54,364 nt of DNA, from contig NZ_PVNL01000139.1 of the NCBI RefSeq assembly GCF_002994635.1, positions 146,055-200,418 of the forward strand, in the 5' to 3' direction. The notes under the pieces are model-generated. The model saw only the letters and a list, made by a program, of their open reading frames with translations. It did not search any database and was not told the origin of the DNA. Source of the DNA: Enhygromyxa salina. GTDB taxonomy: Bacteria > Myxococcota_A > Polyangia > Nannocystales > Nannocystaceae. The number at the start of each line of letters is the position of its first letter. The stretch's first letter is position 1. Shown here piece by piece: positions 4,180-40,982 of this stretch. Position numbers and translations under genes: made by a program.

Positions 4180-4279
4180 GTCAGCCGAATAGCACACCCT
4201 AGAGCACCGATCGCCTCTACTAATTTGCGCTCGCAAACCCTGTGACACGCAGACTCGCCGCTTGGCGAGCCCCTCGCCG

Positions 4280-5833
4280 CTACAGCGCGTCCAGGATCTG
4301 CTTGATCTCGTCGAGATCCGCGTCTCCCGGCAATACCGCCTGCGCCGCCGCGATCGCTGCATACGCCGCGTCAATCGCGACGCCTGCTTCCGTGAGTGTG
4401 CCCGACTTGATCGCAATCAATGCGTCCACATACGCGATGATCGCCGCGCCCTTCGCCATCCGACTCGCGTCGCTGTCGAGCAGCTGCGCGAAGCTGTAGC
4501 TCTGCGACACCTCCATGCTCTCGAAGCTGCTCACGTCCTCCCAGGTGGCGGTCACCGTGATCTGTGCGGCCTCGTCGATCAGCTCCGGCGCGCAGGTCAC
4601 CAGCTCCTGCAAGAACACCATCGAGTCATTCGGCGCGAGGTGCTGCGGCTCGACCTCCTTGGGATCCGACGACAGCTCCTCCCCAGAGAATTTCACGATC
4701 TCGAACCCAGGCGGCAAGCTCAGCTCGACCTGAACGTTGCGCGCCGCCAGCCCCATCGTGCTGATGAAGTTGGTGTTGAAGGTGTCCCAGGCCTCAGCCT
4801 CGTTGGTGATGAACACCGAGGCGCCCTTGCCCGCGTCGGTGACCACGTCCATCAGATCGTCGTTGTAGGTGCCGACCAGATCGACCCCCGCGCCGACCAG
4901 GTAGATCCCGTCCGAGCCCCCGTAGTTGGCGCTCTCGGCGATCAGCTCGATGTCCGTCACGCCCGCGTTGGCGCCACCGTCCGAGATCAACACCAGGCGA
5001 TTGAGCGCGTTGATGTCCCAGGTCTGCTGGGCCAGCTCGTAGCCCGAGGTCAGCCCGCCGTGGAGATCGGTCCCACCGCCAGCGGTGAGCGCCTCGATCT
5101 TGTCGAGCAGCTGCGGATCATTGGGCCCGGTGACCGCGTAGCCGGCCAGCGTCCACGAGTTTTGGGTGTCCCACTCGACCATCGAGACCTTGTCGCCCTC
5201 GCGCAGGCTGGCCGCGATCGCCCGGCAGCTGTGCTCGAGCAGCTCGATCGGCTCGCCCGACATCGACCCCGAGGTGTCGAGCACCAGCGTGATGTTCATC
5301 GGCGGCCGCTCGGCGTCGGTCATCTCCTCGCTGGTGACCCCGAGCTGCAGTTGGTAGTGCGGCGCGTCCTCCGGGAACCCTTCGAGCATGCGCAGCTCAG
5401 CGCTCAGCGCCAGGCTGCCGTCGTCGGCGGGGGCATAGTCGAACGAGTAGTAGTTCATGAACTCCCACGGCCGGATCGCCACGGGCCCGAGCCCGAGCCC
5501 ATCGACCAGGACTCGCTCGCGCACCTGCACCGGGGAGCTCATCGAGTTCGAGTCGTCGGGCGAGAGGTACAAGATCACGTCGTCGACGTCGTTGCACAGC
5601 GGCTCGCCAGTGTCGGTCTCGGTCTCGGTCTCCTCTGTGGGACCCTCCTCGTCGGGGATCACGGGTTCGTCGCCTCCCTCGGCGCCGCCGTCCTGCCCGC
5701 CGCCGCTCTCGCCCCCATCGCCCGACGTGTAGTAGCCCTCGTCGCCGAACGAGGAGCCGTCGTCACCGCAGCCGGCGAGGCTGACGGTCAGGGTCACGAG
5801 AGCGAGGGCACAGGGAAGCTCGATACGTTTCAT
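4280..5833 (-). CDS. von Willebrand factor type A (vWA) domain lipoprotein, YfbK-like architecture (N-terminal VIT-like region + vWA)
   Basis: Signal peptide and lipobox MKRIELPCALALVTLTVSLAGC; acidic Gly/Glu-rich linker; MIDAS motif LDTSGSMSGEP; paralog of 6291..7946. Confidence 0.8.
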   Translation of the reverse strand: MKRIELPCALALVTLTVSLAGCGDDGSSFGDEGYYTSGDGGESGGGQDGGAEGGDEPVIPDEEGPTEETETETDTGEPLCNDVDDVILYLSPDDSNSMSSPVQVRERVLVDGLGLGPVAIRPWEFMNYYSFDYAPADDGSLALSAELRMLEGFPEDAPHYQLQLGVTSEEMTDAERPPMNITLVLDTSGSMSGEPIELLEHSCRAIAASLREGDKVSMVEWDTQNSWTLAGYAVTGPNDPQLLDKIEALTAGGGTDLHGGLTSGYELAQQTWDINALNRLVLISDGGANAGVTDIELIAESANYGGSDGIYLVGAGVDLVGTYNDDLMDVVTDAGKGASVFITNEAEAWDTFNTNFISTMGLAARNVQVELSLPPGFEIVKFSGEELSSDPKEVEPQHLAPNDSMVFLQELVTCAPELIDEAAQITVTATWEDVSSFESMEVSQSYSFAQLLDSDASRMAKGAAIIAYVDALIAIKSGTLTEAGVAIDAAYAAIAAAQAVLPGDADLDEIKQILDAL

Positions 5834-8083: not shown

Positions 8084-9853
<1,770 letters not shown>

Positions 9854-32017: not shown

Positions 32018-33001
32018 TCAGGGTGCTGGCGTCGCGTGGGCCGCGGCCGCGAGCGCGGCGAAGTCACCAGCCTGAAGCTCGAGGCCGACCCGCACGCGGT
32101 CGCCGACGTTGCCCACGTTCACGCGCCCGAGCACGCCCGCGAGCGCGGCGGGGAGCTCCGCGGCGGCGTCCTTGCTCAGCAGGCCGTGAAGCCCCGCCGC
32201 GGCGGTCTGAGCTGCGGCGTCGGTCTCGAAGCCAGCCGTGAGCTCGACCCGCGCGCGCTCGCCGAGCTCGACGGCGCCGGTCAAGTTGATGGCCGCGGCG
32301 GCCTCGGGCACGCCCACGAAATTGAAGAGCATCGCAACTTGCGGCGGGAGATCGGCGGCGAGCCACGCAGCGGCGTGGGTGTCGACGGTGGTCAGCAGCT
32401 CGCGCTTGGCGTGCTTGGCCGCCGGCTTGGCTTCGCCCTCTCCGTCGATAAGCTCGCCGACCTGCCCCTGCCACCCGGCCGTGGCGAGCACGAGCAGGTT
32501 CGCGTTGACCAAGAACACCCGACCGTCGGGGAAGTCGATGATCTTCTTGCTGTCGTCGACGCTGATCTCCGCGCTGGGTGCAGCCCCGACCAGCCGCTGC
32601 GCCGCCTCGATCATGCAGAGCGCCCGCGCGTCCTCGCCGAACCCCGAGCCGGTCAGCGCGACCACGAATTCGTCGGCGTGCGTGCCGATCACCACGCTCT
32701 CGAAGCTGCGTAGCTCGAGGCCGCAGCCGTCGAGCGCCTGCTTGGCCTGCTGAAACTGGGGCTCGGCGGCCAGCTCGGCGGCGAACTGGCTGGCGAGCTG
32801 CGAGCTTGCGAACACGGTGGGGGTGAGCCCCGCGATGACGCTGGCCTCGTTGGGGATCAGCTCGATCGGCTGCGGGAAGGCCTCGCGTGCTGGCTGTGCC
32901 GGGGCGACCGCGACGGCGTCCGACTCGGCCTCGCGCCCGCAGCCCGAGCCAACAGCCACCGCCAGACCCAGCGCGAGCCTCACATACAGTCGCCTGGGCA
33001 T
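32018..33001 (-). CDS. hypothetical lipoprotein (tandem paralog 1)
   Basis: ATG at 33001 gives MPRRLYVRLALGLAVAVGSGC (lipobox); homologous to 33099..34007 (for example LIPNEASVIAGLTP vs LIPDEAEFIVGLNP). Confidence 0.6.
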   Translation of the reverse strand: MPRRLYVRLALGLAVAVGSGCGREAESDAVAVAPAQPAREAFPQPIELIPNEASVIAGLTPTVFASSQLASQFAAELAAEPQFQQAKQALDGCGLELRSFESVVIGTHADEFVVALTGSGFGEDARALCMIEAAQRLVGAAPSAEISVDDSKKIIDFPDGRVFLVNANLLVLATAGWQGQVGELIDGEGEAKPAAKHAKRELLTTVDTHAAAWLAADLPPQVAMLFNFVGVPEAAAAINLTGAVELGERARVELTAGFETDAAAQTAAAGLHGLLSKDAAAELPAALAGVLGRVNVGNVGDRVRVGLELQAGDFAALAAAAHATPAP

Positions 33002-33098
33002 GGTGGACGGTCGTTGGCCGGACATTTGTCGGGACGCTAGCACGCAAAAAGGGACCGTCACCGGTCCCTTTTTGAGCGCGAGCCAGTGGCTCGAGAGA

Positions 33099-34007
33099 CT
33101 AGAGCGGCATCTTGTCTTTGCCGGCCTTGATGTCGTCCATGCTGGCCGAGACGCCAACCTTGACGTCGGGGCCGGACGCCTCGATCTTCACGCTCTCGAC
33201 CACGCCCGCGAGCTCCGGGGGAGCCTGGCCCTTGAGGCCGTCGAACATCTCCTGGATCTTGTCGGCGGTCGCCTTGGCCTTGGCCTCGTCGCCGAAGCCG
33301 GCGATGAAGTCGAGCGCGACGCCCTTGCTCAGATCCACGCTGCCCGCGACGGTCTTGACGGCGGTCGCCTCGGGAGCGGCCATCGCGGCCATGCCAGCGA
33401 GTTCGGCGGGGACGTCGGCGATGAACCACACGGCGGCCTTGGCGTCGACCTTGCCGTAGAGGTCCTTCTTGCCGTTCTCGATCGCGGGGGTGCCCTTGCC
33501 GTCGATCAGCTCGCCGACCTTGTCCTCCCACGCGGTCGTGGACAGGGCCATCATGTTCTTGTTGACCAGGTAGGCCCGGCCGTCAGTGAACTGGATGACC
33601 TTCTTGCCGTCCTCTTTGCTGACCTCGGCGGCCTCTTCCTCGCCGCTCATCTTCTGGATGTTCTTGATGACGCACGAGGCGTTGTCGTCCTCGCCGATCC
33701 CGTCACCGACGATGACCGCGACGAAGTCCTCGGTCTGGCTGGCACCGATCACGACCGCGTCGAACTCGGTGGGCTTGAGCCCGCAGTCCTCGAAGGCCTT
33801 CATGGCCTCCTTGAAGTCATCTTCCTTCTCGAACTCCGAGGAGAACTCCTTGTAGAGGTCCGAGCCGGTGATGGTCTTGGGGTTCAACCCAACGATGAAT
33901 TCAGCCTCGTCGGGGATGAGCTTGACTGCGTCGGCGCTCGCTCCCCCCTTGCAGGCGGGAAGAACCAACAGGGAGACAGCCAGCGACGTCGTCCAGATAC
34001 GCTTCAT
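33099..34007 (-). CDS. hypothetical lipoprotein (tandem paralog 2, Lys/Glu-rich, lower GC)
   Basis: ATG at 34007 gives MKRIWTTSLAVSLLVLPAC (lipobox); AAG/GAG-rich codon usage unlike its neighbour. Confidence 0.6.
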   Translation of the reverse strand: MKRIWTTSLAVSLLVLPACKGGASADAVKLIPDEAEFIVGLNPKTITGSDLYKEFSSEFEKEDDFKEAMKAFEDCGLKPTEFDAVVIGASQTEDFVAVIVGDGIGEDDNASCVIKNIQKMSGEEEAAEVSKEDGKKVIQFTDGRAYLVNKNMMALSTTAWEDKVGELIDGKGTPAIENGKKDLYGKVDAKAAVWFIADVPAELAGMAAMAAPEATAVKTVAGSVDLSKGVALDFIAGFGDEAKAKATADKIQEMFDGLKGQAPPELAGVVESVKIEASGPDVKVGVSASMDDIKAGKDKMPL

Positions 34008-34227
34008 GGTCGTCGGCTTATACGCGGGCGCAACTCTCGCGGTCAAGCCGGTGTGCACCCGCTCGCGCACGAAAGATTCTCACTCGGCTGATCGGCGGCT
34101 CGCGCGGCTCGCCGAACAGAGCACCGCTCGCTTCTCTAGGCCGTTCTGCGGCGGCGCGAAGTTAGCGCGGACGGTTTGGAGACGCGATGTGCAGGATCGA
34201 GCCTGCCCGGCTACCATCCCCGCGCTC

Positions 34228-34968: not shown

Positions 34969-36069
34969 ATGGCGCTCTCTGTAGGCATCGTCGGCCTCCC
35001 CAACGTCGGCAAGTCCACGCTGTTCAACGCGCTGTCCGACGCGGGCGCGGAGGCAGCCAACTATGCGTTCTGCACGATCGAGCCCAACCACGGGATCGTG
35101 CTGGTCCCCGATCCTCGCCTCGACGCGCTGATCCGGGTGATCACGCCGAAGAGCACCGTCCCGACCACTGTCGAGTTCGTCGACATCGCGGGTCTGGTCG
35201 CGGGCGCGAGCAAGGGTGAAGGGCTGGGCAACCAGTTCCTGGCCCACATCCGCAGCGTCGACGCGATCGCCCACGTGGTCCGCTGCTTCGAAGACGACAA
35301 CATTCAGCACGTCGCCAACAAGGTCAATCCGATCGACGACGTCGAGACGATCGACACCGAGCTGATCTTGCGGGATCTGCAGTCGCTCGAGCGCCGGCTC
35401 GAGCGGGCTCGCAAGCAGAGCAAGAGCGGCGACAAGCAAGAGAAGCTGGCGTTCGAGCTGTGCCCGCGGGTGATCGCCGAGCTCAACGAAGGCAAGGCCG
35501 CGCGCGAGCTCGAGCTCACCCCCGACGAGGCGGCCGTGCTCGCCGAGCTGGATCTACTCACCGCCAAGCCGGTCTTCTATGTGGCCAACGTCGGCGAGGA
35601 TCAGCTCGCGGCCGGGCTCGACGATCCGCTCGTGAAGCGTCTGGTCGATCACGTCACGCCGAGCGGCGCCGAGGTCGTGGTCATCTCGGCCAACAACGAG
35701 GCGGAGATCGCCGCGCTCGAGCCGGACGAGCGCAAGGAGTTCCTGGCCGAGATCGGGTTGGAGGAGCCGGGGCTCAACAAGCTGATCCGCACCGCCTACT
35801 CGCTGCTGGACCTGATCACCTACTTCACCGCCGGCGAGAAAGAGTGCCGCGCGTGGACGATCAAGCGCGGGACCAAGGCGCCCCAGGCCGCGGGGGTGAT
35901 TCACACCGACTTCGAGCGGGGGTTCATTCGCGCCGAGGTCGTGGACTGGGAGACGCTGGTCGAGCTCAAGTCCGACGCGGCGGTCAAGGCCGTTGGGAAG
36001 ATGCGGGTCGAGGGCAAAGAGTATGTGGTCCGCGACGGCGACGTGATGCACTTCCGCTTCAACGTGTAG
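34969..36069 (+). CDS. ychF: ribosome-binding ATPase YchF (Obg-family GTPase)
   Basis: G1 [18 protein letters not shown]3 DIAGLV, typical YchF C-terminal TGS domain ...DVMHFRFNV. Confidence 0.95.
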
Positions 36070-36299
36070 CCAGATGAGCGCGTGGGGCCCAGCGGCCCTG
36101 CCATCACCCGCGGGTTCGCTCGGCCTGCGCTGCGTCGCGGTCGTCTTCTCGTCGCGTGCCTGCAGGTGCGACCTTGAAGATGTTCTGTGTCGAGATCGAC
36201 GCGCGCAGCCACGCTGGCAACGCCTTGACCTGTTCGGCGTTACGATCGAGCGTCTCTCGAAGGAGTTCGCGTGGAGTCTTCTCTGGCATTGGGTAACCC

Positions 36300-37154
36300 T
36301 TACTGCAGGACCTGGTCGAGGGTATCGCAGAGCAGTTGCTCCGCCAACAGGTGAGGATTTCCGAGCGCACGCGCACGTGGGCTCGCCCCCCCGGGGATCC
36401 ACTCCACCGCGTATCCCCGGCCATCCTTGCGTCGGCCAAAACTGAAGAAGTCGAGGTACCGCCGCGGGGCCACACCGGTGAATGCGCGGAAGGCGAGCTT
36501 GCGCTCGTCGCTTCCTCCCAGCGTGATGGCTTCTGGATAGAGATCAACCGCGAGACTCTTCGGGTATGGCTCGATGTACACGACCGCGGCGATCCCCGCG
36601 CCGATGATGTGTCGCGCGCAAACGTGGCAGGGGAAGGTCGTGCAGTAGAGCTGACGCTGGTCGACCTGGATCCCCCGGCGAGCCGCGTAGACGAGAGCGT
36701 TCATCTCCGCATGGACGACCCGACCGAACTCGATGAGGTTGCCGATCCGAGCATCGTTGAACAACTTCGTGCTCTGCGCCTGCTCAACGAGCGCCGCCGT
36801 GCCAAGTTGGGTCTTCTCTTCTGCAAGCCATCCTTCACCGTGAAGCACGTCAAATAGCTCTCGAAGGATCTCGCGACCAAAGATCGCATTTGGATCCGAG
36901 CCGCGCCTGAAGTCGCGTCCGTCCGAGACGTCGCCTTCCCAGTACACGCCACCGCGGGGTTTGGGGACTTCGTTGCACCCACAGGCTAAGACTTCACCTT
37001 CACCGTCAACAATCACGGCGCCGACCTGCCGCGACATGTCAGCGGAGCGCAACGCGACCGCCTGTGCCGAGAACATGGCGTACTCGTCCCGCGTCGGACT
37101 CATCTGTGGGTGGCCAAAGAGAAGCCGGATCAGGCGCTCGATCTGGTTGCGCAA
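36300..37154 (-). CDS. zinc-dependent dCMP/cytidine deaminase-family protein with about 100-aa C-terminal extension
   Basis: Canonical N-terminus TRDEYAMF...RQVGAVIV, zinc motifs HAEMNAL and PCHVCARHII; ORF starts with TTG 2 nt after the stop of the upstream ORF, the first ATG (37103) has no SD. Confidence 0.8.
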   Translation of the reverse strand: MRNQIERLIRLLFGHPQMSPTRDEYAMFSAQAVALRSADMSRQVGAVIVDGEGEVLACGCNEVPKPRGGVYWEGDVSDGRDFRRGSDPNAIFGREILRELFDVLHGEGWLAEEKTQLGTAALVEQAQSTKLFNDARIGNLIEFGRVVHAEMNALVYAARRGIQVDQRQLYCTTFPCHVCARHIIGAGIAAVVYIEPYPKSLAVDLYPEAITLGGSDERKLAFRAFTGVAPRRYLDFFSFGRRKDGRGYAVEWIPGGASPRARALGNPHLLAEQLLCDTLDQVLQ

Positions 37155-37155
37155 A

Positions 37156-37737
37156 TTAACACCGGCATCGAGGAAAAAGTCGGCGAGCGGAAACGCCTTG
37201 CGGACGCTCTGTCCAAAACCTGGAGTGCCCCGCCCTTCCTGGTCGGCTCAAGTGCCGCTCACGCTTCTCCTCCACTTCGTAGACCGCAATCACAACCAGA
37301 GAGGTCCCATAGACGTCTCGCAAGAGCTCAACCTCCTTCGGATGTTTTAGCGACCGGAACAAGAATGCGGTCGCGGGTTGGGCCTCATCGCCGCCTCGGA
37401 TCCGTCGGATCTCGGCAACGGCCAGCGCTGCCAACGCCCCCGCATGACCAAACGTCTCGCGGACCTCGTCGCCAGCGTCCATGTAGGCCTCGATTCGTTC
37501 ATCCTCCGTACCGCTGAAGTCGTGTAGGTGCTCGTGGCCTGGCAGCCCTGCGATCAGCCGGCTGAGTCGTATCGGCTCGCGGAGCTCGTAGTCCACGATT
37601 CCCAGCTCGGCGTCGAGCGCATCCGTGACCCTGTCGAGATCCGTCCCGGTGGGTCCAACCAACGCAAAGAACAGCTCCGGCTGGTCCAAGGGCGACGGCG
37701 GAGTGAATTTGGACATGTTCGTATCAGACAAGATCAC
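37156..37737 (-). CDS. hypothetical protein (193 aa) immediately upstream of, and possibly once fused to, the deaminase
   Basis: High GC3; degenerate P-loop-like LVGPTGTD (no Lys); TAA stop at 37158-37156 abuts the deaminase frame. Confidence 0.5.
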   Translation of the reverse strand: MILSDTNMSKFTPPSPLDQPELFFALVGPTGTDLDRVTDALDAELGIVDYELREPIRLSRLIAGLPGHEHLHDFSGTEDERIEAYMDAGDEVRETFGHAGALAALAVAEIRRIRGGDEAQPATAFLFRSLKHPKEVELLRDVYGTSLVVIAVYEVEEKRERHLSRPGRAGHSRFWTERPQGVSARRLFPRCRC

Positions 37738-37752
37738 TCCACAGCTACTCGA

Positions 37753-38889
37753 TCACTCACGCTCGTCGACGAAGCGATCCTTCAACCCAGCCGACACATA
37801 CAGCGCATCATCAGGCCCAATGATCACAGCCTCCAGCCCAGCGTGGGCCTCGACGAACGCGAGCCCCTGGGCCGGCTCCATCACGCTGACGGCCGTACAA
37901 TAGGCGTCTGCGTCGGTCGCGTTGCTGGCGACCAGGGTCACGCTCTTGGGGCTGCGATCCGTGGGGATCGGCCAGCCCGTGCGCGGGTCGAGGATGTGGG
38001 TGTAGTGCACGCCCTCCCACTCGAAGAAGCGGGCATAGTTGCCCGAGGTGACGACGGCCTCGTCTTTGGCGCTGATGTGGCCAATGCGACCCGCGACTTG
38101 CCTGGGATCCTGAACACCGACGCGCCAGGGCTTGTCACCCTTTTGGCCGCTGACCTGGGTGTCGCCGCCTGCCTCGACGATATGGTTGGCGAACCCACGC
38201 GCTAGCAACACGGCCGAGGCACGGTCGACCGCGTAGCCCTTGGCGATCGCTCCCAGCCCAACCTTCATGCCCGGCTTACCGAGCCGCACGGTGCCGGCGT
38301 TCGGGTCGAGCTCGATCGATCGCCAGTCGACGCTCGGGAGACGCTCGGCGATCCGATCCTTGCTGGGCGGCTCGGCCCCCGGCTCGAACCGCCACAGCTG
38401 GCCGACGCTGTAGAAGCTGACGTCGAACAGGCCCTCGGTCTGGGCCGAGACGGCGGCCGCCCGGGCGAGGATCTCGATCAACTCGGGGGCGACGGTGACC
38501 GGGGCGCCGCCGGCCTCGTTGACGCGGGTCAGATCGCTGGTCGCCCGCCACTCCGAGGCGATGTCCTCGATCCTGGCCATCTCGTGGATCGCGTCGGTCA
38601 TGGCCTCGCTGGCCGCGAGCGCGTCGCCGCCAGGGCCAACCCACAAGTTGATCGAGACCCGCGTGCCCATGAGCTCGGTCTCGGCGAAGATCGTGCCGTC
38701 TTCGCGGATCAAGGACGCGGCCTCGGCTGCGGTCTTGGCCGATTGTTGGGCCTGATCTTCGGCGGCGACTTCCCCAGCTACGGCGGGCTTGTCGGCGGCA
38801 TTGGTGCGAGCCGCCGGGTCGGCGTCGCGCGAGCACGCACCGACCACGACGAGCAGCGCGGCGCCGACCAAGCTCGCGGGCCGCATCAC
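37753..38889 (-). CDS. apbE: FAD:protein FMN transferase (ApbE family) lipoprotein
   Basis: Lipobox LLVVVGAC; ApbE signature AIAKGYAVD and ...SGNYARFFEWEGVHYTHILDPRTGWP. Confidence 0.8.
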   Translation of the reverse strand: MMRPASLVGAALLVVVGACSRDADPAARTNAADKPAVAGEVAAEDQAQQSAKTAAEAASLIREDGTIFAETELMGTRVSINLWVGPGGDALAASEAMTDAIHEMARIEDIASEWRATSDLTRVNEAGGAPVTVAPELIEILARAAAVSAQTEGLFDVSFYSVGQLWRFEPGAEPPSKDRIAERLPSVDWRSIELDPNAGTVRLGKPGMKVGLGAIAKGYAVDRASAVLLARGFANHIVEAGGDTQVSGQKGDKPWRVGVQDPRQVAGRIGHISAKDEAVVTSGNYARFFEWEGVHYTHILDPRTGWPIPTDRSPKSVTLVASNATDADAYCTAVSVMEPAQGLAFVEAHAGLEAVIIGPDDALYVSAGLKDRFVDERE

Positions 38890-40982
38890 TTCTTTTTCCG
38901 GCCAGGAGGCGGCGGCGGGATCGGCCGTGAGCCCGAGCGGCCCGCGGCGGGATCCGGCGAGATGTTTCCGAAGCTGTCGGCGAAGTCGTCGTCTTCATCG
39001 AGCTCGCCCGCGATCAGCGAGCTCTCAATCTCGTCGAGCTCCTCGAACTCGTCCTCGACCTCGTCTTCCATGCTCGCAAACGGGTCGTCCTCGCCGGGCT
39101 GGGTCACGCGGGGCTGCGGTGTTGTCGACACGGCCGGCGGCGTCGCGGTTGCTGGCGGGGGTCCAACCGGTGGGCGCGGGATCGGCTTGACCCCGGACTG
39201 GGTGTCGCCGCGCTTGCCGAGCCTGGCCAGCAGCGCCTTGGTGTCCGTGGGTGTGCGGCGCGACTCGCCGGGCGCCGCGACGTCGGACCGAGTGCCCGGC
39301 GGGGCGGCTGCCGAGGCGGCTGGCGGCGCTGGGATCGGCGGCAGCGGCGTGGACCCGGAGCCGGTCCGGCGGGGCAGCCGGCTCGCGAGGCTACCGCCGG
39401 GCTGGCGCGGTGGCAGCTTGTCGCCGAGCTTGGGCGCGGGCGGCAGCTTGCCCGGGATTGGACCGGTCCCGCTGTCGCCGGGGTTGCGCCCGGGTAGCCG
39501 GCTCGCGAGCGGCACCCGACCGGTGCCTGACGGCTTGGCCACCGATGGCGCCGCCGGAACTGGACCCGAGCCCTTGGCGGCGGGGATCGGCGCGACGCCG
39601 CTCTCGCCGGGCTTGCGCGGGAGCCGGCCCGGCAGCGGAGAGTGCTCGACGCCGCCCAGCGTCGCGGCCCGGCCGGAGGCCTGGTGCTTGCGGGGCTGCA
39701 CGGCGGCCTCGACTTCGGCGTCGGCAGCCGCGATCTCGGCGGCGGCGGCCTCTTCGGCGTCGAGCTCCTCGAGCAGACCGGCGAACATGTCGTCGCTGTC
39801 ACCGCTGAGCGCGACGTCCTCGATCGCGGGCAGCTCGTTGACGCCGCTGAGCTCGATCGCCGAGAAGCCTGCGCCCGCGTCCGCGAACCCGACCTCGTTG
39901 AGGGATGCAGCGAGCGCGGCGCTGTCACCGGCGTCGACCGAGTCCTCACCCGCGTCGTCAGTCAGGGCATCGATCGCGGCCTCGGCCTCGTCGAGATCGA
40001 TGTCGAGGTCGAACTCGAAGTCGTCCTCGGCGGACGCGTCGGCCTCGGCCTCGCCGCCCAGGCCGCCCCAGAGCTTGGCCAGGGTCGGGTAACGGCGCCA
40101 GTAGCTGGTCGAGAACTCGTCTGCGGGGCCGCCTGGCACGCGCACGCGGACCAGCCCGGCGACGACGTTCACGGCCAGCACGTGGCCAGCGTAGTAGGTG
40201 TCGATCGCCTCTTTGAACCGCCAAAACAGCGCCTGCGGCTTCTCGGCCCGGCCGATGATCGCCTTCCACAGGCGCAGCGGCCCGTGCTCGATGACCGGCG
40301 CGAACAGGAACTCGCGACCGCTGCGGAACAGCAGCTCGAAGTGCTCGTGCTCGACGACGACGTCTCGCTCGGTCAAGCCAATGCTCTCGAGCCCCGCGAC
40401 CAGCTGCGAGGGCGAGGGTCGGCGGCGTCGCAGCATCTGCAAGGTCGCGACCTCGCGCCGCATGTCCTCGTCGCGCAGGACCTCCTCGAACATGTCCTCG
40501 ACCTCGCGCCAGGTGCCCGCGAGCGGGAGCGTGGCCAGCACCTGCCCGCCCGGCTTGGTCACTCGGACCAGCTCGGCGAGCGCGGGCAGCCACTCGACGA
40601 CCTGCTCGCCCAGCACCAGGTTGGCGATCGCGAGATCGTAGGTGTCGTCGTTCATGTCGGTGACGTCGTCGATGTCACCGGACTTGAAGTAGACGCGGCG
40701 CTTCCACTCGGGCCGCACGCGGGTCTTGGACACCTGCATCAGCCACGGGTCACGGCCGAGCGCGACGATCCGCGAGCTCTCGTCGAGGCGCTGCAGCAGC
40801 TCGGCGGTGGTGTGGCCCGCGCCGCTGTGGATGTCGAGCGCGAAGGTCTCCGGGGCGCTGGGCAGCTCGCGCATCAGCAGACGCGCGAACCGATCGTGCC
40901 AGATCGGCGCGACCTCCCGGTCGATCACGCGCGCCAGCTTTTGCTCGCGCACGCTGGAGGCTGTGCTCCTCTGGGTGTTCAC
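38886..40982 (-). CDS. class I SAM-dependent methyltransferase with about 400-aa repetitive Pro/Ala-rich acidic C-terminal tail
   Basis: N-terminal Rossmann MTase motifs (DIHSGAGHTT, YDLAIANLVL, VTKPGGQVLAT); tail has about 3 imperfect repeats SRLPxRxPGxSG..PIP and ends in GRKKK; 4-nt overlap with apbE. Confidence 0.7.
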   Translation of the reverse strand: MNTQRSTASSVREQKLARVIDREVAPIWHDRFARLLMRELPSAPETFALDIHSGAGHTTAELLQRLDESSRIVALGRDPWLMQVSKTRVRPEWKRRVYFKSGDIDDVTDMNDDTYDLAIANLVLGEQVVEWLPALAELVRVTKPGGQVLATLPLAGTWREVEDMFEEVLRDEDMRREVATLQMLRRRRPSPSQLVAGLESIGLTERDVVVEHEHFELLFRSGREFLFAPVIEHGPLRLWKAIIGRAEKPQALFWRFKEAIDTYYAGHVLAVNVVAGLVRVRVPGGPADEFSTSYWRRYPTLAKLWGGLGGEAEADASAEDDFEFDLDIDLDEAEAAIDALTDDAGEDSVDAGDSAALAASLNEVGFADAGAGFSAIELSGVNELPAIEDVALSGDSDDMFAGLLEELDAEEAAAAEIAAADAEVEAAVQPRKHQASGRAATLGGVEHSPLPGRLPRKPGESGVAPIPAAKGSGPVPAAPSVAKPSGTGRVPLASRLPGRNPGDSGTGPIPGKLPPAPKLGDKLPPRQPGGSLASRLPRRTGSGSTPLPPIPAPPAASAAAPPGTRSDVAAPGESRRTPTDTKALLARLGKRGDTQSGVKPIPRPPVGPPPATATPPAVSTTPQPRVTQPGEDDPFASMEDEVEDEFEELDEIESSLIAGELDEDDDFADSFGNISPDPAAGRSGSRPIPPPPPGRKKK

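Follow-up and report, generated by a model that had tools for sequence, protein, structure and literature searches.

The stretch of DNA analysed here (the window: 54,364 nucleotides (nt) of Enhygromyxa salina contig NZ_PVNL01000139.1, positions 146,055 to 200,418 of the forward strand) carries on its minus strand two abutting open reading frames (ORFs), which a sequence-only reading had proposed to be a split gene for an AvcD-type anti-phage deoxycytidine triphosphate (dCTP) deaminase. Translation bore out both ORFs, with their boundaries, and the deaminase motifs HAEMNAL (36713..36693) and PCHVC (36632..36618). The upstream ORF (37737..37156) encodes 193 amino acids (aa) from a GTG, and the downstream, deaminase ORF (37154..36300, with its stop codon TAA at 36302..36300) encodes 284 aa from a TTG; a single base separates the TAA of the first (37158-37156) from the TTG of the second (37154-37152). 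The upstream ORF probably begins in reality at the ATG at 37716 (MSKFTPPSP...), in agreement with the N-termini of homologues and with the public annotation of 186 aa. From this ATG to the AGC codon of S157 (37248..37246) runs the 5′ part of the gene (37246..37716), which encodes a kinase-like (P-loop-kinase-like) domain with the nucleotide-binding motif GPTGTD (37656..37639). The 3′ part (36300..37154) encodes a linker helix, a zinc-dependent dCMP/dCTP deaminase domain, where both deaminase motifs lie, and a family-specific C-terminal region. Ten nt after the deaminase stop, on the same strand, follows a small, intact gene of 61 aa (MPEKTPRELLRETLDRNAEQVKALPAWLRASIS...; 36104..36289).

Profile searches assigned the two ORFs to consecutive parts of one family. 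Against NF041025, the NCBIfam equivalog ‘anti-phage dCTP deaminase' (437 positions, curated cut-off 400 bits), the upstream ORF matched positions 1-149 (102 bits, E 3e-29) and the downstream frame positions 171-432 (305 bits, E 1e-90). The PADLOC dCTPase model likewise matched both pieces (123 bits, E 5e-36, for the upstream one and 355 bits for the downstream one), while Pfam recognized dCMP_cyt_deam_1 in the second piece (E 1e-19) and had no match in the upstream piece. A conceptual repair across the junction of the two frames scored 404.5 bits against NF041025, which is above the cut-off (an intact relative, P0001, scored 424), whereas the fragments as encoded reached 102 and 284-305 bits, each below it. 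This explains their public names: the kinase-like fragment is annotated as ‘hypothetical protein' (PRP94909.1 / WP_146158652.1), and the deaminase fragment as ‘tRNA-specific adenosine deaminase' (PRP94908.1, 267 aa from the ATG at 37103) and as ‘deaminase' (WP_106094492.1, 284 aa). Neither fragment is flagged there as a pseudogene or as a defence gene.

Relatives carry the two parts in one protein. Used as a database query, the conceptual fusion returned 3,404 relatives, of which the 17 best full-length ones were single proteins of 494-529 aa with 58-66% identity. A single ORF of about 500 aa spans both parts in L001, from a Nannocystis metagenome-assembled genome (MAG), L002, L081/L082 and L093. 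By these matches, the two ORFs are the halves of one AvcD/DcdV-type anti-phage dCTP deaminase gene, as had been proposed. The features that define membership, a kinase-like domain with a nucleotide-binding motif and a zinc deaminase domain with H-A-E and P-C-x-x-C, are both encoded, but on two polypeptides instead of one, from ORFs of 186 aa and 284 aa that differ in frame; the published definition of the family asks for kinase-like and deaminase domains and a length of more than 350 aa (10.1101/2021.04.26.441389). Two features that the sequence-only reading had singled out as odd turned out to be ordinary for the family. The supposedly degenerate P-loop LVGPTGTD is its normal motif (consensus ALVGPxGTDL, with G26 invariant), and the ‘unusual' extension of about 100 aa after PCxxC lies within the coverage of the NF041025 profile, to position 432 of 437.

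Three-frame translation revealed what lies between the two matches. The deaminase frame is open 5′ of the TTG back to 37247, reading ADQEGRGTPGFGQSVRKAFPLADFFLDAGVN, and this open stretch overlaps the final 30 codons of the upstream ORF. Its part at 37155..37244 encodes conserved family sequence, DQEGRGTPGFGQSVRKAFPLADFFLDAGVN, which is in neither ORF product; after the stop codon TGA at 37250..37248, the deaminase frame contains no ATG, GTG or TTG until the TTG at 37154. The profile match of the upstream ORF, in turn, stops at the junction described below, beyond which this ORF continues as an out-of-frame tail (37156..37245) of 29 codons (RPGRAGHSRFWTERPQGVSARRLFPRCRC) and the TAA, without homology to the family. 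Family sequence that is open in the deaminase frame and overlaps the upstream ORF indicates a frame break rather than two abutting genes, and the genuine two-gene arrangement, one of the options left open by the sequence-only reading, is excluded because this conserved sequence between the ORFs is not translated.

Alignments placed the break at 37246/37244. A tblastn search with P0001 matched residues 5-159 up to 37246 (70% identity) and residues 183-495 from 37244 onwards in the next frame (frame -2 to -3), leaving residues 160-182 unmatched. At the junction (37244..37246, minus strand) the codons CAC TTG AGC are followed by one base, C (37245), and then by GAC CAG GAA (DQE) in the +1 frame; the junction sequence in the window is CACTTGAGCCGACCAGG. 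In a DNA alignment of this region with L001, L081, L002, L003 and L029, the first three of these each have 68 extra nt at 37246/37244, that is, 22 codons and 2 bases, and the extra 68 nt of the relatives encode 23 residues, corresponding to P0001 160-182. Protein alignment gave the same picture, with the block xRIxxSxxxxxxAxxxAxxLIxR absent from the window between ...EEKRERHLS and DQEG.... Since one base is left over between the two coding blocks, the number of bases lost on balance cannot be divided by three. As judged from these alignments, the lesion is either an out-of-frame deletion of some 68 nt or the sum of an in-frame deletion and a small indel, and no one-base sequencing slip.

To see which part of the protein is affected, we modelled the intact relative P0001 with AlphaFold2 (from 63 sequences; predicted local distance difference test score 93, predicted template modelling (TM) score 0.91). 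Residues 160-182 form the second half of helix 151-166, a loop and most of helix 172-185, a helical hairpin that comes after strand 142-148 of the N-terminal kinase-like domain. The deleted segment holds 21-35 residues in all 63 full-length relatives and none in the window; within it, A176 is conserved in 97% and L179 in 94% of the relatives. The loss extends beyond the deleted bases. Because no start codon precedes the TTG at 37154 in the deaminase frame, the stretch DQEG...FGQSVRKAFPLADFF (37244..37173) is encoded but absent from both ORF products, and with it D183, Q194, F200, D204 and F206 (P0001 numbering), which are invariant in 63/63 relatives. Neither product thus contains a complete kinase-like domain, with the hairpin and the invariant D...GQ..R..F.L.D.F segment. 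Foldseek searches of the Protein Data Bank (PDB) matched the N-terminal domain of P0001 to the adenylate-kinase-related structures 3lw7 and 3h0k (target TM score about 0.7) and its C-terminal domain to the dCMP deaminases 2w4l, 2hvw, 7fh4 and 1vq2. We found no solved structure of a full-length family member in the PDB, by sequence or by fold, or in the literature.

The expected consequences for expression are as follows. The deletion takes out of the kinase-like hairpin the second half of its first helix, the loop, and most of its second helix, and it shifts the frame, so that the first 157 residues run into the 29-residue nonsense tail. The deaminase domain can be produced only from the internal TTG or ATG, and the invariant D...FGQxVRxxFPLADxF segment is translated in neither product. 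DcdV/AvcD combines a P-loop-kinase-like and a deoxycytidylate deaminase domain and deaminates dCTP and dCMP; mutations in its Walker A (S52K), in its Walker B (D162A+Q163A) and in its deaminase site abolish activity, and a two-helix LID has been described in its kinase-like domain (10.1101/2021.03.31.437871). In the Escherichia coli AW1.7 enzyme, G29A and C30A in the nucleotide-binding motif and zinc-site mutations each abolish defence and dCTP depletion (10.1101/2021.04.26.441389). By analogy, the deleted hairpin may be the equivalent of the published LID, and the untranslated D-Q that of Walker B D162/Q163. As both domains are required in the characterized enzymes, and as in the products of the window gene the domains are separated and five invariant residues are missing along with an obligatory hairpin, this copy should be inactive, and it is most likely non-functional.

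Outside the deletion the gene is in remarkably good order. Among the 63 relatives, 116 alignment columns show conservation of 90% or more, and the conceptual fusion keeps 113 of them; the three missed columns are S146A and two positions that were deleted, so that 113/114 are kept outside the deletion. Three-frame translation detected no further stops or frame shifts in the gene outside the deletion. Such near-perfect conservation means that the lesion is either recent or an artefact, and it suggests that the deletion happened recently, an assembly error appearing less likely. The cassette formed by the gene and its small neighbour (36104-37737) also differs in composition from its surroundings, with a G+C content at third codon positions (GC3) of 0.68-0.73 for its three ORFs versus 0.87-0.95 for ychF, apbE, the methyltransferase gene and the RNase H gene. 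This low GC3 argues for horizontal acquisition and points to a foreign insert of about 1.6 kb. Taken together, we consider it likely that the locus holds one horizontally acquired AvcD/DcdV-type gene that was broken by a non-triplet deletion and is now a recent, most probably inactive, pseudogene.

Several considerations weigh against this reading. A single 68-nt event looks the same as an in-frame deletion with a small indel, and database, genome and metagenome scans found no relative above 66% identity, the genome scan none above 65%. The near-perfect conservation would be equally compatible with an error in the assembly or with selection that still acts on the pieces, and in the databases searched the locus is known from one assembly only. 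The equation of the hairpin with the LID and of D-Q with Walker B is our own, and the loss of function is deduced from mutants of distant family members.

The first of the rival explanations builds on these points. If the gene were intact in the organism, with about 490 aa, and the draft assembly had introduced the 68-nt gap, then a gene that is pristine on either side of the gap and known from a single assembly is what would be expected, and frame breaks in some other relatives do stem from long-read MAGs, in which errors are common. A clean loss of 68 nt is, however, atypical of base-calling error, and we found no repeats in or around the deletion region, nor in the homologous stretch of the relatives, that could have collapsed; moreover, the 200-kb contig reads through normally on both sides. 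We therefore consider an artefact unlikely. It is less likely still that the two fragments are made separately and form a working two-piece enzyme, or that the deaminase fragment alone was kept for another role. The stop and the TTG, one base apart, would permit translational coupling, the HAE/PCxxC and nucleotide-binding motifs are intact and conservation is high, and the gene is also split in L003/L095, L014, L029 and L092, from other lineages. But these and further lineages break elsewhere, including in the deaminase half (L015, L028 and L034), which leaves no conserved split architecture. Every one of the full-length relatives keeps the hairpin, the five invariant residues are in neither window product, the upstream product bears the nonsense tail, and the published mutants indicate that both domains are needed in the context of one protein (10.1101/2021.04.26.441389; 10.1101/2021.03.31.437871).

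Ribosomal frameshifting by +1, for example at the U UUU G run (37221-37216), would yield a fused protein. In its favour, a shift of +1 leads from the upstream frame into the deaminase frame, and the TTTT run lies inside the 30-codon overlap, with rare AGG and CGA codons nearby. The relatives, however, read TAT GGC or CTC GGT at this place, neither a conserved slippery site nor a stimulator was seen, there is no precedent in the AvcD family, and any slip past 37245 would still lose the invariant D183 and the whole hairpin. We regard this explanation as highly improbable. The last alternative, that a housekeeping dCMP deaminase (ComEB-like) or a tRNA adenosine deaminase happens to lie next to an unrelated hypothetical gene, follows the public annotation and had also been raised, for ComEB, in the sequence-only reading. 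It is refuted by the profile scores and by the relatives. The deaminase fragment alone scored 58-60 bits against ComEB (cut-off 219) and 15-17 bits against TadA (cut-off 150), versus 284-305 bits against the anti-phage family, which makes the TadA label a mislabel at superfamily level; that same family also accounts for the upstream ORF, by its N-terminal domain, and in the relatives the two are fused. The broken, recently inactivated gene thus remains the reading that we favour.

Unlike the deaminase, the small gene at its 3′ side is intact. It is publicly annotated as a hypothetical protein (WP_106094491.1), and a homologous small ORF (E 1e-15 to 1e-37) occupies the identical position and strand after the deaminase in L001 (9512-9697), L002 (about 8540-8727), L003 (about 4200-4400) and L081/L082 (7518-7724 in L081). 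In a 36-codon core, synonymous divergence was 0.56-0.85 and non-synonymous divergence 0.09-0.37, with a ratio of non-synonymous to synonymous rates (dN/dS) of 0.05-0.38. Synonymous differences far above non-synonymous ones mean that the small gene is protein-coding and under purifying selection. ORFs with the motif [E/K]V..[W/L]P.W.[K/R] lie 3′ of more distant deaminases in L004, L006, L007, L014, L022, L026, L027, L029, L032, L089 (3055-3228) and L092 (2086-2286). The small proteins have 50-68 aa, with one amphipathic helix that ends in [W/L]-P-x-W-x-[K/R] and a disordered tail after it. When the deaminase domains were placed on a rough neighbour-joining tree, the carriers were two deep clades in full (9/9 and 5/5) and two singletons, and a metagenome scan that started from the small protein found four loci, each of which (4/4) had a deaminase directly upstream.

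The small protein matched no Pfam, NCBIfam or PADLOC family, and every one of its 19 database relatives is named ‘hypothetical'. An exclusive linkage to the deaminase was considered and ruled out, as four relatives (P0134, P0135, P0138 and P0140) adjoin other, mostly unknown genes, without a deaminase remnant. Clear relatives with no deaminase in the vicinity lie at L083:4001-4183, L085:4001-4183, L086:2763-2948 and L087:2914-3102. Of these, one adjoins a cluster of Eco57I-like, AbiJ and SDH-protease genes, one is preceded by two unknown genes within an element that bears an integrase, and one comes after unknown genes of 659 aa and 271 aa. The small protein may thus pair with other partners or stand alone.

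A function for the small protein can be considered in the light of the Vibrio system, where the small RNA (sRNA) AvcI, about 170 nt long, is encoded immediately 5′ of the deaminase gene and co-transcribed with it (10.1101/2021.03.31.437871). AvcI holds the enzyme inactive and is lost after transcription shut-off (PMC10511110; PMC12409362). In the window, 36 nt separate the apbE stop (37753) from the ATG at 37716, and we found no Rfam match in 35800-38100, although AvcI itself may not be in Rfam. A 5′ sRNA would thus hardly fit in this clade, and it is reasonable to hypothesize that the small protein regulates the deaminase instead. It is conceivable, if on balance doubtful, that the deaminase and the protein of about 60 aa make up a two-gene module, in which the protein would act as a regulator or antitoxin in place of AvcI and of which, in the window, the partner would have outlived the deaminase.

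The window gene is not the only broken copy. Among about 41 loci, seven other AvcD-type genes have frame breaks, at differing sites and in both domains (L003:2689-4192, which equals L095:2472-3975; L014:8001-9405; L029:8001-9489; L092:559-1978; L015; L028; and L034). The break in L003 recurs in L095, a metagenome contig of the Joint Genome Institute (JGI), which is possibly the same data as L003, and several of the broken copies belong to long-read MAGs, in which errors are to be expected. The broken copies may reflect frequent gene loss, possibly with sequencing errors mixed in. The first five copies (those of the window, L003, L014, L029 and L092) all broke in the kinase-like domain, which looked like a hot spot; this idea was dropped when tblastn of the 41 loci revealed breaks in the deaminase half as well (L015, L028 and L034), many of the copies coming from long-read MAGs.

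The cassette ends an operon of the methyltransferase gene and apbE and is convergent with ychF. Around it we detected no integrase or tRNA genes, no flanking repeats and no promoter-like or terminator-like sites. There are no known defence genes near it, the neighbours encoding YchF, RNase H, ApbE and the methyltransferase; the contexts of the relatives vary, and some are defence-like (HNH and nSTAND in L081). The methyltransferase gene (38886-40982, minus strand) encodes a 698-aa protein with an N-terminal S-adenosylmethionine (SAM)-methyltransferase domain and a long, low-complexity C-terminal half rich in Pro, Ala, Gly and Asp, and its stop overlaps the apbE start by 4 nt. Elsewhere in the window, 32018-33157 and 33099-34070 (both minus strand) are adjacent paralogues (36% identity over 272 aa, E 5e-58) with signal- or lipoprotein-like N-termini and no Pfam family; the two differ markedly in base composition (regional GC 0.72 versus 0.64).

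In kind, then, the locus is ordinary: it belongs to a known defence family, is disrupted and has been misannotated. The split matters mainly for annotation, in which the two fragments ought to be merged into a single, disrupted gene for an anti-phage dCTP deaminase. The locus also illustrates how one small deletion may suffice for the loss of a costly or toxic defence gene whose remaining sequence is still perfect. The small conserved gene at the 3′ side is the more useful lead, and the one feature of the locus that is possibly worth follow-up. Should its product indeed regulate the deaminase, the family would have RNA-controlled and protein-controlled forms, and the latter would offer a testable handle on how these deaminases stay silent until infection.

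How the locus relates to known systems can be stated domain by domain. The fold and the zinc motifs of the C-terminal domain match those of human DCTD (2w4l) and of the dCMP deaminases of Streptococcus mutans (2hvw) and phage T4 (1vq2), as well as the bifunctional dCMP/dCTP deaminase of PBCV-1 (7fh4), with Foldseek E-values of 1e-8 to 1e-7 and target TM scores of 0.6-0.8, and matches to PDB sequences were found too. These housekeeping and viral dCMP deaminases are, however, single-domain proteins of 140-190 aa, without the kinase-like domain or the C-terminal region of about 100 aa. With TadA the window deaminase has in common the fold of the cytidine/deoxycytidylate deaminase superfamily. In relation to the E. 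coli AW1.7 enzyme and the family models (NF041025 and PADLOC dCTPase PDLC02373), the repaired gene passes as an equivalog and its fragments singly fail; and unlike an anti-phage dCTP deaminase in a defence island, it has ychF, an rnhA-like gene, apbE and a methyltransferase gene as neighbours.

Characterized members convert dCTP and dCMP to dUTP and dUMP once a phage stops host transcription, and the phage is starved of deoxycytidine nucleotides; intact members of the clade studied here would be expected to deaminate dCTP and dCMP against phage in the same way. The closest comparison is with AvcD/DcdV of Vibrio cholerae (VC0175, with the sRNA antitoxin AvcI/DifV). The two have the domain layout and the profile family in common, and the motif set of AvcD/DcdV, comprising the nucleotide-binding loop, the acidic D-Q, HAE and PCxxC, is also present in the window DNA. 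The window gene differs in being split, with the hairpin and the D-Q segment missing from any product. It differs further in its surroundings and its host, a marine myxobacterium: the apbE gene leaves no room for a 5′ sRNA of the AvcI type, and a gene for a conserved 61-aa protein stands immediately 3′ of the deaminase.

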